A stretch of 63,989 nucleotides of DNA, filler included, from Sandaracinaceae bacterium (GTDB lineage: Bacteria; Myxococcota_A; Polyangia; Polyangiales; JADJQN01), in the NCBI GenBank assembly GCA_947483975.1. It is 5 parts of 5 records of this genome, joined end to end, with 100 filler letters (N's around TTAATTAATTAA, not from the genome) between each part and the next. Parts side by side here need not be neighbours in the genome. Positions count along the whole stretch, not along the records: positions 39,151 to 51,748 come from CANKOL010000127.1; 4 more parts are not named here. The stretch is one strand, 5' to 3'. Below are positions 43,601-46,600 of this stretch, in pieces. Position numbers: made by a program. Within the stretch, counting starts at the first letter, position 1. Every line of letters begins with the position of its first letter.

Positions 43601-46600
43601 GTGTCGGTGTTTCCCGCGGTGCCACCGCCGCGAGCCGCGCGCCATGGCCGGTCCCAGGCGTCCTCTTCGTCCGTCCGATGTTCGCTCGGCGCTCAGTTCT
43701 CGATGCGCTGCGGGGGCACCGTCGGACGGTGAGGGGCTACCGCCCATCGAGTGCGCGTCGACCCGACCAAGGTTGGGCTACCCGACCAAGGTTGGGCTGG
43801 ATGTGGGCACCTGGTGCCGCGTCGGGGAGGCGTCCTCGAGGCGGCCTTCGGACCCGACGCTCCGCTCTCCCGGTCTAATCGAAGCCGCCCACTGGCTTCC
43901 GGTGCTGTCGGCGCCTCCGGGCAACCCGCGGCAATCCAGTCTTGCGCGCCGCTCGGCTACACCGCGGCCTCGACGGCCACGGTCCGCGTGGCGCCCCGCT
44001 ACGCGCCCGCTGTGCCCGTCGTTTGCGTGTACGGCGTCTCTACGCGGCGACGGCCGCGCCGTGATGCCGCACCATCCACCAAGTGCCGGCGGGGAACACT
44101 GCGTCACGGAGCCCGGCACGCCATCGAGCGAGCGCCGCGTCGTACGCCGCGCGAAAAGCGCGCAACGCGCGGACCGCAGCCTGATACGCACCCGGGACAC
44201 CGCCTACCGCGAACGTGGGATTGCGCGACGCGAGTGGCTCGAAGCTCGTCGCTCGGTCGTGCGGCGATACGTTCTCGGCGCGCTCGGCCCCGAGGAACTT
44301 CCAGCCCTTGTCGGCGACCTCTTGGCGAGCGCGCGTCTCGTGCTCGGCTGCCGAGGCGCGCGCGGCGTCGCGCCACGCGTCGGCGTCTTCGGCCCCGACG
44401 CCCGGCGGCAACGACAGTTCGAGTTCGGCGTAGTCGGGCCAAGCACCGTTTTCGGCGTCGAAGTAGTAGGCGGGGCGCGCCGCGCGCATACGACCACCCG
44501 CGAGGTCGGCGATGCGGCTCTTGGGGCCTGGCCAGTCGCGCGCATACCGCACGAGCGCCGAGGCGACTGGGTTTGCCAGCGCATAGCCGATCTTGTCGAG
44601 GATCGCCGCGCGTGTCGTCAGCTGAACCACGGACGTCTGCGCGTCGTCCCATGCCGTTCCTTCCCACTCGCGGAGCACTTTGAGCCCGAGCGCCACCGAG
44701 CGATGAAAGTGCGCGAGGAACGCGGGTAGCTCGCCGCACGGGTCAGTCGCTACAAGGTGGTAGTGTGTCGACATGGCGCAGAACGCGTGTATCTGCAGGC
44801 CGTAGCGAGCGGCCGAGACCGCCAGCGCGTAGACGAATAGCTGCCGTACGTCGCGGTCGGGCCGGAGCAAGAAGTGCCTGCGCAGAGTGCGGCGCGTGAT
44901 GAAGACACTGGAGCCGGGGAGGACGGGGCGAGCGCGGGACATCCGCGGACGTGGAGCAGGCGGCGTGCCGGAGGTCGCTTGTGTGATTTCAAGGGGTTAT
45001 GCGGACGAATCGGCGGACTCGCCGACGGCCGCCGCCAGGCCGCCGCCGGAACGTGCGACCAAGGTTGGGCTGGCCGGGCTGCCGGAACGTGCGACCAAGG
45101 TTGGGCTGGCCGACCCAGGTTGGGCTGCTAGCTCGAGGGCTGGCCGACCCAGGTTGGGCTGCTAGCTCGAGTGGAGCGCTTCCGATAGAGCTTTCGTGGA
45201 AGGCGCCGCGCCCCGGGGCGCCGCCTAGGTCGCCGCCTAGGTCGCCGCCGAGGTGCTGACGAGCGCGAGCGACTTCTCGTCGGCCGCGACGCCGAACTCC
45301 GCCGTGCCGCCGTCGCGCAGGTCCCCGAACAGCAGCGCCTCCGCGAGCGCCTTCTTCAGCTGTTGCTCGACGAGGCGCGCCATCGGGCGCGCGCCCATCG
45401 CCGGGTCGTAGCCGTTCACGGCGAGCCAGGTGCGCGCCGACGGCGTGAGCGCGACGGTCACCTTCTTCTCGTCGAGCTGCCGCTGCAGCGCCGCGACCTC
45501 CTTGTCGACGACGAGCAGGATGATCTCGGGCGTCAGCCCGCGGAACAGGATCTGCGCGTCGAGCCGGTTGCGGAACTCGGGCGTGAAGAGCTTCTCGATC
45601 GCGCTCTTGGCCTTGCCCTCGTCGACGCCCGCGCTCGCGCCGAAGCCGATCGACTTCGTCGCGAGGTCCCGGGCGCCCGCGTTCGTCGTCATGATCAGCA
45701 CGATGTTGCGGAAGTCGGCCTTGCGACCGTTGTTGTCCGTCAGCGTCGCGTGATCCATCACCTGCAGGAGGATGTTGAAGATCTCGGGGTGCGCCTTCTC
45801 GACCTCGTCGAGCACGACGACCGCGTGCGGGTGCTTGCGCACGGCGTCCGTCAGCAGCCCGCCCTGGTCGAAGCCGACGTAGCCGGGCGGCGCGCCGATC
45901 AGGCGCGAAACCGTGTGCCGCTCGCCGTACTCGCTCATGTCGTAGCGCAGGAACTCGACGCCCATCACTGCGGCGAGCTGCTTCGCGAGCTCCGTCTTGC
46001 CGACGCCCGTCGGCCCGGCGAAGAGGAAGTTGCCGATCGGCTTGTCCGCCGCGCGCAGCCCCGCGCGCGAGAGCTTGATGCTCGCGGTGATCTGCGCGAT
46101 GGCCTCGTCCTGGCCGAAGATCACCTTGTGGAGCTCTTCGTCGAGGTGCTTCAGCTTGTCGCGGTCTGACGAGCTGACGGTCTTCTCGGGGATGCGCGCC
46201 ATCTTCGCGACGACGTGCTCGATGTCCGCGACGCTGATCGTCTTGCCGCCGCGCAGGCGCACCATCGCGCCCGTCTCGTCGATGACGTCGATCGCCTTGT
46301 CGGGGAGCAGTCGCTCACGGAGGTGGAGCGCCGAGAGCTTGGTCGCCGCCTCGAACGTGCCCGGCTCGTACGTCGCGCCGTGGTGCGTCTCGTAGCGGCT
46401 GCGCAGCCCCTCGAGGATCAGCACGGTCTCGTCCTCCGAGGGCTCGTTGACCTCGATCTTCTGGAAGCGCCGGGCGAGGGCGCGGTCGCGATCGAAGCTG
46501 CTCTTGTACTCCTCGAACGTCGTCGAGCCGATGCAGCGCAGCTTGCCGCTCGCGAGCGCGGGCTTGAGGATGTTGGACGCGTCCATCGAGCCGCCCTGCA

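Follow-up and report, generated by a model that had tools for sequence, protein, structure and literature searches.

The described systems closest to the locus studied here combine an HUH enzyme with short repeats or hairpins in DNA. REP sequences, BIMEs and REPINs are built from hairpins, usually GTAG-tagged, arranged as alternating BIMEs or as REPIN doublets, and TnpA-REP of E. coli (PDB 4er8) is a protein of 165 aa. Elements of the IS200/IS605 family, such as IS608 and ISDra2, encode a TnpA of ~130-150 aa with a Y-x3-Q signature, have subterminal hairpins at each of their ends, on one strand, and occur as near-identical copies. To our knowledge, hairpins are the site recognised by every characterised IS200/IS605 or RAYT enzyme and by the solved Y1 enzymes of this kind. 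The iterons of rolling-circle or geminivirus-type HUH Rep proteins are short same-orientation repeats beside the HUH gene, with a lineage-specific sequence, and they lie, regularly spaced, next to the nick-site hairpin of a single origin.

In TIRYT/TIRtron systems, RAYT-like genes are flanked by non-REP inverted repeats, which can form moderately abundant families of single, dimeric or grouped copies, and the TIRYT proteins are longer than RAYTs (main text of Di Nocera et al., 2013, PMC3733652). In the classification of TnpAY1 proteins, class 2 is marked by the signature Y-x3-N-P, and TIRYTs form subclass 2.1; its members carry the motifs NH[VYF]H and YIELNP or Y[IV]HLNP and, in the C-terminal part, a helix-turn-helix (Bac_DnaA_C, HTH_23 or HTH_28), and their median length is 238 aa (main text of Quentin et al., 2018, PMC6006769). 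Subclass 2.3 comprises long multi-copy class-2 proteins of Chromatiales and Alteromonadales of ~300-325 aa, with several diverged copies per genome, a long C-terminal tail, two core insertions, the motifs NHYH and YVDLNP, and no flanking repeats identified in that description (Quentin et al., 2018, PMC6006769). The main texts of both papers, and two supplementary text files of PMC6006769, make no mention of Sorangium or other myxobacteria.

We analysed a window of 63,989 nt, filler between its five parts included, from a lake-water Polyangiales genome. The window holds a gene for a 300-aa protein flanked by arrays of a short motif (Table 1). This arrangement of gene and arrays is family-wide in Myxococcota and recurs in Sorangium, Minicystis and distant members of the phylum; the design, which the first-pass annotation had called unusual, is not special to this genome. 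The reading we prefer, and regard as moderately probable, is that the locus is one copy of a Myxococcota-wide gene cassette that resembles a REPtron or TIRtron and operates as outlined at the end of this text. A literature search that included the main RAYT and TIRYT papers, with most subscription journals outside its reach, returned no prior description of this family of genes and arrays.

Table 1. Positions of the gene, its upstream block and the motif copies within the window.
Feature	Position	Strand	Basis or remark
Gene for RAYT-like Y1 HUH protein, 300 aa	44040..44942	-	ORF including stop codon
Conserved upstream block, ~107 nt, common to all paralogs	44944..45051	-	Alignment of six upstream regions
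Putative sigma-54-type -24/-12 element GGCACGCCGCCTGC (GG-N10-GC)	44956..44969	-	13 nt before ATG
TTGAAATCACA inside upstream block	44982-44992	-	
GC-rich palindrome inside upstream block	about 45020-45049	-	
Upstream array, four motif copies	45055-45069, 45091-45105, 45110-45124, 45144-45158	+	Motif search
Non-coding stretch of ~240 nt, stop codon to first motif copy	43797..44039	-	Weakly conserved among paralogs
Downstream motif doublet, CCGACCAAGGTTGGG twice, 19-nt period	43763-43777, 43782-43796	+	Motif search
Separate motif doublet CCGACCCACGTTGAG, at 41882 and 41985, 103-nt tandem unit	41882..41999	+	Other intergenic gap

The product has the fold and the catalytic residues of a Y1 HUH protein, and profile and model comparisons support a RAYT-like enzyme with a predicted fold closest to that of E. 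coli TnpA-REP. Its HUH pair is H60/H62 and its catalytic-type tyrosine is Y120, within YaLANPV. H60, H62, Y120 and N124 are invariant in 35/35 aligned family members, the HUH context being M-S-T-H-Y-H-L-V, and P125 is present in at least 90% of them, which gives the class-2 signature Y-x3-N-P. The window protein matches 0 Pfam families at E<=10, Y1_Tnp (PF01797) included, and 14/35 family members match PF01797 weakly (best E 1.3e-4). The NCBIfam equivalog NF047646, 'REP-associated tyrosine transposase', aligns aa 5-138 with profile positions 4-144 of 146 (E 1.3e-9), but its score of 38.1 bits leaves the protein under the 80-bit cut-off for this RAYT family. When the single sequence was searched against solved structures, only chance-level matches were returned (E about 1); the profile of 35 sequences matched 4er8 at E 2.5e-4, pairing H60/H62 with HMH and Y120 with the Y of YIYINPV and aligning Y-x3-NP. 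The AF2 model (pLDDT 93.6, pTM 0.91) matches 4er8_A in Foldseek at E 4e-6, and VIA structure comparison again places 4er8_A best (Z 13.1, rmsd 3.1, 157 residues aligned), followed by the TnpA of IS608 (2vhg_A, Z 9.2) and with 2ec2_A at Z 7.5. Homologs already carry the names 'REP element-mobilizing transposase RayT' (JGI) and 'transposase' (NCBI).

The likeness to TnpA-REP covers the N-terminal 140 aa; TnpA-REP lacks the length of this family, in which a conserved C-terminal region (aa 137-300 of the window protein) ends in FPxGTWWM. Modelled alone, this region gives a poor model (pTM 0.41) without a recognisable fold (best match Z 3.8), from which we concluded neither an independent domain nor a new fold. 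No helix-turn-helix of the kind that marks subclass 2.1 was found in it by Pfam, nor by the fold search with the poor lone model. The absence of a Pfam hit, the assignment as a RAYT-like HUH enzyme and the conserved extension of about 160 aa had all been proposed in the first-pass annotation, and all three hold.

The same is true of its six diverged paralogs. In the 524-contig genome, tblastn with the window product finds six full-length copies, on contigs C127 (the window), C460, C7, C69, C139 and C119, at 64-80% aa identity to that product. Pairwise DNA identity of the six coding sequences is 66.3-81.4%, close to the earlier 68-81%. Two further copies are cut off by contig ends (C56, C399), which brings the genome to six to eight copies.

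Arrays of CCGACCnnGGTTG(A/G)G flank every gene copy, as had been claimed, and the motif is both tightly linked to the genes and dispersed elsewhere. A search for CCGACCAAGGTTGAG with up to two mismatches finds eight copies in the window against 0.11 expected, a number reached by 0/100 shuffles. In the whole genome it finds 130 matches, grouped into 59 clusters; 27 clusters hold several copies, and no cluster mixes orientations. This reproduces the earlier counts exactly. Twenty permuted motifs give a mean of 9.9 matches and a maximum of 34, and exact 13-mers number 91 against 1 for the reversed pattern. A crude stop-to-stop ORF map that over-calls coding sequence puts 88/130 matches in the 14.6% of the genome that it leaves as non-coding, which does not exactly reproduce the 105 intergenic copies reported before. 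Spacing within arrays is irregular, from 19 to 123 nt.

At the window locus, the upstream copies read GCGACC/CCGACC-nn-GGTTGGG on the plus strand, which is 'reverse' relative to the gene, and the nearer downstream copy, also reverse, starts 246 nt past the stop codon. Five of the six paralogs have their first downstream copy between +235 and +249. The paralogous loci had been said to be alike only from -107 to the stop codon; the block is confirmed, whereas the 'only' fails on this downstream position. The stretch between stop codon and first motif copy yielded no Rfam match at E<=1, an RNA fold z-score of -0.71 and no terminator-like site. A conserved 3' element was rejected for the family, the one candidate being a lineage-specific CGTCGTGGGG at about +60, present in 25/105 homologous loci. 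The separate doublet, ~2 kb from the gene, has an 84-nt run of exact identity at its 103-nt period. The central dinucleotide of the motif differs between the two flanks of one gene, and hence no pairing of a paralog with its own motif variant is visible.

The motif has the core CGACC-nn-GGTTG, with arms that are fully symmetric in some lineages (e.g., L004). Its copies in this genome are not palindromes and thus not REPs in the strict sense. Folding of 97 copies with 10-nt flanks gives a mean dG of -5.46 kcal/mol for the motif strand, -5.10 for the other strand and -4.80 for shuffled sequence; the commonest predicted structure occurs in just 4/97 copies, and the profile of motif copies shows no GTAG tag. 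We therefore rejected the copies as REPs.

Across Myxococcota, an orientation rule emerges from 105 homologous loci (6 from this genome, 19 from 10 related genomes, 80 from Sorangium, Minicystis and a Polyangiales MAG), many of which are kin, forming 16 groups with at least 88% CDS identity. In the 500 nt upstream of the gene, 82/105 loci have the forward core (398 copies) and 27 have the reverse core (50 copies). In the 500 nt downstream, by contrast, 76/105 loci have the reverse core (276 copies) and 20 have the forward core (31 copies). Base composition leads one to expect ~0.01 core copies per 500 nt, and the coding sequences themselves hold 3 forward and 0 reverse copies. Forward cores upstream and reversed cores downstream together form an inverted bracket in 66/105 loci, and 12/105 have no copy on either side. 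The same bracket is seen at 29-39% identity in other families of the phylum (L105, L110, L112, L114). 'Direct arrays instead of inverted doublets', as the first-pass annotation put it, therefore holds for single arrays but not at the level of the gene. In this genome, upstream arrays are inverted relative to downstream arrays at three of the six loci (C69, C139, C119), and the window locus and two sister paralogs have upstream and downstream copies in the same orientation. These same-orientation flanks, together with the lack of a shared motif hairpin and of a visible pairing between paralog and motif variant, count against the reading we prefer, and so do three observations given below: limited dispersal in several family-positive genomes, a promoter block that also precedes an unrelated ORF, and motif-free right edges in recently copied pairs.

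Dispersal away from the genes is evident in Sorangium cellulosum So ce56, with 212 motif copies (3 in the control) and 8 genes only. The first 100 of these copies listed form 27 clusters, of which 23 lie more than 3 kb from any family gene and the 4 gene-adjacent ones all follow the orientation rule. In a sample of 150 other genomes from across the phylum, the motif reaches 16 copies per genome at most. In a search of relatives, the exact 15-mer hardly occurs outside this genome and G021. In five family-positive genomes (G001, G004, G008, G011, G025) the degenerate 13-mer occurs at 2-5x control, mostly as singletons, so dispersal does not follow automatically from having the gene.

Arrays change much faster than genes: motif counts differ in 56/56 locus pairs whose coding sequences are at least 88% identical. 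Perfect tandem repeats over the whole period account for 27/71 adjacent motif pairs, and micro-duplications of 9-10 nt adjoin motifs. Both would suit ordinary replication-slippage minisatellites whose nearness to the genes is coincidental, a reading to which we give next to no credence. Slippage is already contradicted by the way the core persists from array to array and from genome to genome: the same 13-15-nt core recurs in ~59 clusters with unrelated spacers and occupies fixed positions around the gene in different genera, and permuted motifs give ~10 matches against 130. The distance that exact periodicity reaches to the left, measured from the motif, varies widely (0 to 95 nt). Hence a fixed duplication phase was rejected, and the periodicity points to no cut site. 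In multi-copy clusters, the motif forward strand is the G-rich strand (+/-10 kb) in 17/27 cases (p 0.25), on contigs that are short for this replication-strand test. Several arrays of this genome are found close to contig ends, a few hundred bases away at most, and near-identical copies of the locus in four DNA runs from lake or freshwater metagenomes sit on contigs that break in the arrays.

The conserved upstream block adds a regulatory component that the first-pass annotation does not contain. A nhmmer profile of the block finds nine places in the genome (E 5.6e-25 to 1e-11), namely the six paralogs, the two copies cut by contig ends and one on C293 in front of an unrelated small ORF; the block is thus not limited to the six genes, and the cassette shares its regulation with host genes. 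GG-N10-GC recurs at the 13-nt offset in 6/6 own loci, and among the 105 loci GGCA[CT]-N5-nTG[CT] stands 13-16 nt before the start in 64, compared with 25/20000 random 60-nt windows (0.13%). These elements match the sigma-54 promoter consensus, and the genome encodes rpoN (Sigma54_DBD on C64, E 5.4e-65), which suggests that transcription may depend on sigma-54. An mRNA started from the -24/-12 element would be leaderless or nearly so. No sigma-70-like promoter was found. A GC palindrome lies between -160 and -60 in 65/105 loci.

With such a promoter, the arrays could be read as binding sites of another protein, either a sigma-54 enhancer-binding activator or a nucleoid protein, with the nuclease genes in its regulon and the enzyme not acting on the motif. 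We hold this to be quite unlikely. The core, whose arms are fully symmetric in some lineages, does resemble a dimer site on duplex DNA, and the motif copies do not have the hairpins known to serve Y1 enzymes as sites; enhancer sites function whatever their orientation and whichever side they lie on, which is how the motif occurs at these loci, and every copy has a promoter of a type that needs an activator, in a block that also serves an unrelated gene. In addition, a sigma-54-like match (>=8/10) lies within 400 nt of 9/18 orphan arrays, compared with 26% of 400 random intergenic windows. A strong match (>=9), however, accompanies just 2/18 of them, and on a crude gene map orphan arrays occupy convergent, tandem and divergent gaps alike and are thus not tied to promoters. 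A regulatory site would also have no reason to be fixed ~200-300 nt after the stop codon with a strict orientation across 29-60% identity. Spacing within the arrays is irregular, and it is the GC palindrome, not the motif, that keeps a constant distance from the promoter.

The family has expanded by lineage-specific gene duplications. In the tree, the six own copies form one clade whose sister is the single copy of a same-genus genome (100/99), and elsewhere, too, paralogs group by genome. Up to 34 matches, some of them partial, occur in one related genome, and G004 has several copies in tandem. Near-identical pairs within one genome are found in So ce56 (98.3%) and G016 (97.1%), with the left edge of identity at a motif copy or at a 24-nt inverted repeat (TIR). 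High copy number, grouping by genome, tandem copies and recent pairs with such an edge are what one would predict if the cassettes were insertion sequences of a new Y1 type, autonomous and still selfish, with the motif as terminal repeat and orphan arrays as solo ends or miniature derivatives, in place of a domesticated REP-like system. We give this reading some weight but consider it unlikely. The right edges of the two pairs, at +115 and +137, carry no motif, so the motif is not clearly the end of the copied unit. The copies in this genome are much more diverged than those of active insertion sequences, which are nearly identical, none of the 35 aligned members has lost a catalytic residue, and no homolog was matched among 72,556 plasmid and 50,697 phage records. 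Moreover, coding sequences at least 88% identical lie at similar chromosome coordinates across Sorangium strains (e.g., ~0.24-0.25 Mb in So ce56, So ce726 and So ce1000), suggesting vertical inheritance.

Against this background, the family can be set beside the known systems. With IS200/IS605 it shares the catalytic fold and the copying of a cassette within genomes, but its copies are diverged, share no hairpins and have Y-x3-N rather than Q. REP and REPIN elements differ from it in both tag and fold, as the arrays here are untagged, non-hairpin and of one orientation. Like a REPtron, the gene is bracketed by an inverted short element that is far commoner in the genome than the gene itself, although not at the window locus; unlike a REPtron, it has 6-8 diverged copies per genome and a sigma-54-type promoter. 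Same-orientation arrays beside an HUH gene recall iterons, yet those here occupy dozens of chromosomal sites, are irregularly spaced and have no origin-like hairpin. Compared by description only, subclass 2.3 is alike in signature, length, copy number and C-terminal tail, and is set apart by its insertions, its motifs, its lack of identified flanking repeats and its taxa.

TIRYT/TIRtron is the closest published concept and fits better than REP/REPIN, to judge from the main text of PMC3733652, in its non-REP inverted repeats, the abundance and grouping of their copies, and the greater protein length. Three loci of G016 (L010, L011, L020) carry 24-nt inverted repeats beginning GGGGAGAT, which match 7/8 positions of GGGGWSAS, the motif published for TIRYT inverted repeats; beside the motif in the window genome, GGGGWSAS was not seen. 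The family departs from subclass 2.1, as characterised in the main text of PMC6006769, in its motifs sTHyH and YaLANPV, in its 300 aa and in having no helix-turn-helix detected by Pfam.

In the cassette that we favour, a ~107-nt promoter block, holding a GC-rich palindrome and, immediately upstream of the start codon, a sigma-54-type -24/-12 element, would control a 300-aa class-2 Y1 HUH nuclease/transposase whose TnpA-REP-like core is predicted to have the family-specific C-terminal region packed on it. The third part would be the 13-15-nt quasi-palindromic motif (CCGACC-nn-GGTTG) on both flanks, forward upstream and reversed ~200-300 nt after the stop codon. The enzyme would be produced only when a sigma-54 activator fires. 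Co-location of gene and motif is what suggests that it may bind or cut the motif; it would recognise the motif and nick and rejoin DNA at or beside it through Tyr120, with a metal on His60 and His62. Such nicking and rejoining would seed motif copies at other intergenic sites, where local tandem duplication would make them grow or shrink into same-orientation arrays, and the cassette itself would have been duplicated repeatedly within lineages.

A further-reaching reading, which we put forward tentatively and think doubtful, is that these Y1 HUH enzymes recognise a short non-hairpin quasi-palindromic site and, under sigma-54 activation, use nick-primed local duplication to write and rewrite same-orientation arrays in intergenic DNA, at dozens of sites. 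If true, Sorangium and other Myxococcota would possess a regulated, host-integrated system that restructures intergenic DNA. For the questions of how RAYT enzymes interact with their repeats and what role they have in the host, this family provides a second, structurally distinct case, set apart by its short non-hairpin motif, same-orientation arrays, many diverged gene copies and conserved, regulated-looking sigma-54-type promoter. Its hosts include organisms that can be cultured and genetically manipulated and whose genomes are complete, and with its 8 genes and 212 motif copies So ce56 makes the relation between enzyme and repeat directly testable. Finally, the family accounts for one type of intergenic tandem array at which assemblies of myxobacterial metagenomes break.

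Contig C127 (12,598 nt; adding 39,150 to a C127 position gives the window position) of the source genome carries the gene at the centre of this analysis. The genome is assembled into 524 contigs (5.29 Mb, 71% G+C, estimated to be 81% complete), and comparison with named relatives puts its organism among the Polyangiales. The window strings together individual contigs with runs of N between them, so genes on opposite sides of a run are not neighbours. A tblastn search recovers six full-length paralogs in this genome with 64-80% amino acid identity, and their coding sequences share 66.3-81.4% DNA identity. 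Two further copies of the conserved upstream block precede genes that are cut by the ends of contigs C56 and C399 (starting MSRPRQ... and MPPRPRP..., in that order). Hence, the true gene copy number is at least 7-8.

Coordinates of the features in the window and on other contigs (C-numbers) of the source genome
Feature	Position	Strand	Remark
N runs between window contigs	window 13157-13256, 26179-26278, 39051-39150, 51749-51848		
RAYT-like gene ORF	window 44040-44942	-	encodes 300 aa
Separate doublet of motif variant CCGACCCACGTTGAG	window 41882-41999	+	103-nt tandem unit
Extra promoter-block copy, gene cut by contig end	C56:22-129	-	first codons only remain
Extra promoter-block copy, gene cut by contig end	C399:32-132	-	first codons only remain
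Promoter block without nuclease gene, and 93-aa ORF	C293:3786-3889 and C293:3456-3737	-	block profile match

No Pfam family matches the 300-aa protein, and the NCBIfam model for REP-associated tyrosine transposases matches residues 5-138 (E 1.3e-9) below its cut-off (38 bits against 80). There are hundreds of homologs (470 of the 8000 candidates scored reach E<=0.001); those of Sorangium and Minicystis are labelled "transposase" at NCBI, and some JGI records read "REP element-mobilizing transposase RayT" or "putative transposase". The plasmid and phage records searched contain no homolog. In an alignment of 35 sequences (34-83% identity), H60 and H62 of the HUH motif, Y120 and N124 of Y-x3-N-P, and a string of C-terminal positions terminating in F-P-x-G-T-W-W-M are invariant. 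A family profile aligns both the HUH and the Y-x3-N-P motif with E. coli TnpA-REP (4er8; E 2.5e-4). The same protein is the top structural match (4er8_A; Foldseek E 4e-6; VIA Z 13.1 over 157 residues) of a confident AlphaFold model (pLDDT 93.6, pTM 0.91), followed by IS608 TnpA (Z 9.2). Residues 137-300 fold poorly when modelled alone (pTM 0.41), and this poor model has no structural match (best Z 3.8); the region looks like an elaboration packing on the core rather than a separate DNA-binding domain. Both the RAYT-like HUH identity and the six diverged paralogs described in the first-pass annotation hold.

The motif CCGACCAAGGTTGAG occurs eight times in the window with up to two mismatches, where 0.11 copies are expected, and 130 times in the whole genome, in 59 clusters. 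None of the 27 multi-copy clusters is of mixed orientation. Since twenty permuted motifs give 9.9 matches on average (maximum 34), and since copies cluster and flank all six complete genes, the observation is real and far above chance; the hit and cluster counts and the gene linkage claimed previously are reproduced. A profile of 97 copies from multi-copy clusters is near-invariant at C-C-G-A-C-C, R-A-G, G-T-T-G and a final G, and the sequences flanking the copies are unrelated from array to array. Folded as DNA with 10-nt flanks, these copies reach a mean of -5.46 kcal/mol (shuffled sequences, -4.80), and no structure is shared by more than 4 of the 97. The copies are not palindromic elements. 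The core, CGACC-nn-GGTTG, is a quasi-palindrome with a single asymmetric position, whose pairing would be G-T in one strand and A-C in its complement; the arms are fully symmetric in some lineages. Within arrays, whose repeat units range from 19 to more than 100 nt, 27 of 71 adjacent motif pairs repeat perfectly in tandem across the entire period. Short micro-duplications adjoin many copies. Those of 9-10 nt frequently overlap or abut one motif end, such as GAGGTCGGCA (twice), GCGGTTCCG (three times) and the repeated GGATCTGCGTG (examples at C38:10969-11112, upstream of the genes on C139 and C69, and at loci L003, L019 and L022 of the collected set); no consistent phase relative to the motif was found in the arrays examined. 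The CCGACCCACGTTGAG doublet of the window occupies a different intergenic gap, some 2 kb away from the RAYT-like gene, and in a same-genus genome this variant is found on the flanks of the only gene copy (L001/L021).

How the motif is placed around the genes was analysed at 105 loci (6 own, 19 from ten related genomes, and 80 from Sorangium species, Minicystis rosea and a Polyangiales MAG), which are not independent and include 16 groups with at least 88% CDS identity. Occurrences of the strict core ACCnn[GC]GTTG on either strand were counted over 500 nt per side, with orientation given relative to the gene. Upstream, the forward core is present at 82 loci (398 copies) and the reverse core at 27 (50 copies); downstream, the reverse core is present at 76 (276 copies) and the forward core at 20 (31 copies). 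Coding sequences contain three forward cores and no reverse one. The median distance is 181 nt from the start to the nearest upstream forward copy and 258 nt from the stop codon to the first downstream copy. A full inverted bracket, forward upstream and reversed downstream, surrounds 66 of the 105 genes, and 12 loci have no copy at all. Among the six own loci, three are forward-upstream, three reverse-upstream and five reverse-downstream; the window locus and its two closest paralogs are exceptions with the same orientation on both flanks. The 80 named loci comprise 73 forward-upstream and 65 reverse-downstream cases. For the 19 relatives the strict core yields six of each, missing variant motifs that are seen by eye in most of the others. 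The bracket recurs, with its own motif variants, around members that are only 29-39% identical and belong to other families of the phylum, for example in a low-G+C genome where CCGACCCAGGTT precedes the gene and CAACCTGAGTCGG follows it. The cassette of promoter block, gene and flanking motifs is family-wide. Several family genes lie close together in one genome (G004 C34:302-326 kb), with motif copies of alternating orientation between them, and at L007 a second cassette begins directly after the first downstream motif. At L003 and L008, in two related genomes, the cassette, judged by eye, looks to follow immediately on a tRNA gene 3' end (GGTTCAAATCC..., GGTTCGAGTCC...).

Motif counts are unequal in all 56 locus pairs whose genes are at least 88% identical, so arrays turn over much faster than genes. 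The promoter block on C56 is identical to that on C139, and their upstream arrays differ. In a maximum-likelihood tree of 38 family members, all six own copies fall into a single clade, sister to the single copy of the same-genus genome (support 100/99), and paralogs of other genomes likewise group by genome. This points to repeated gene duplication within lineages, although gene conversion may alternatively account for such clustering. Concerning duplication, a near-identical pair in S. cellulosum So ce56 is 98.3% identical from -153 to +115, with its left edge 10 nt before a motif copy, and a pair in G016, another genome compared, is 97.1% identical from -246 to +137, with its left edge at a 24-nt inverted repeat containing the motif. 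These left edges mark where copying began; the right edges contain no motif. Between L010 and L011 and between L029 and L031 (genes 97-98% identical), the stretch that runs from about +115/+137 up to the first motif downstream is of similar length but shows no sequence relationship, and at L010 this stretch and the motif itself are tandemly duplicated.

A conserved block of about 107 nt precedes all gene copies. GG-N10-GC lies exactly 13 nt ahead of the ATG in all six own loci, and in 64 of 105 loci the start is preceded, at a distance of 13-16 nt, by the strict pattern GGCA[CT]-N5-nTG[CT], compared to 25 of 20,000 random 60-nt windows; near variants are present in most of the remaining loci. 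RpoN is encoded in the genome, and a search for a sigma-70-like promoter at the gene found none. With the -24/-12 element so placed, the mRNA would have little or no leader. As a candidate activator site, the palindrome GGCGG(N0-2)CCGCC is preferable; 65 of 105 loci have it at a position from -160 to -60. A block profile matches nine places in the source genome, namely the six genes, the two truncated copies and one unrelated 93-aa ORF on C293, where the block contains the GC palindrome, TGAAATCAC and GGCAC-N5-TGC. The translation of the gene after this ORF shows, by eye, a ComEA-like helix-hairpin-helix motif.

Of the 27 multi-copy clusters in the source genome, 18 are separated from the six genes by over 600 nt, and at least one of these (C56) belongs to the seventh, truncated gene copy. 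The exact 13-mer CCGACCnnGGTTG has 91 copies in this genome compared to one for a reversed-pattern control, and never exceeds 16 in 150 other genomes sampled across the phylum. So ce56 carries 212 motif copies (control, 3), yet just eight family genes; the first 100 copies listed form 27 clusters, of which 23 have no family gene within 3 kb and all four gene-adjacent ones follow the orientation rule. A degenerate pattern exceeds its control only 2-5-fold in five further genomes that have the family, and wide dispersal is thus lineage-dependent.

Class 2 of the Y1 family is defined by Y-x3-NP (Quentin et al., 2018; PMC6006769), which the Myxococcota family possesses, and none of the subclass signatures in the available part of that paper fits it. 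The nearest published concept in the texts as available is that of TIRYT genes (Di Nocera et al., 2013; PMC3733652), whose flanks carry inverted repeats that are not REPs and can make up repeat families in single, dimeric or grouped form; the TIRYT-associated subclass 2.1 differs in having an HTH tail and in its motifs. Sorangium and myxobacteria are mentioned neither in the available parts of these two papers nor in Bertels et al. (2017), and the motif strings are absent from microbial papers in the literature searched. From the strong and phylogenetically deep linkage we infer that the enzyme acts on the motif. Of the REP-RAYT system of unusual design proposed in the first-pass annotation, the RAYT-like part stands with the 4er8 match, and the REP part does not, as the copies share no common hairpin. 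The system is more aptly regarded as a new version of the REPtron/TIRtron theme that extends across the Myxococcota and combines a non-hairpin motif, fast-turnover same-orientation arrays, multiple diverged genes and a sigma-54-type promoter.
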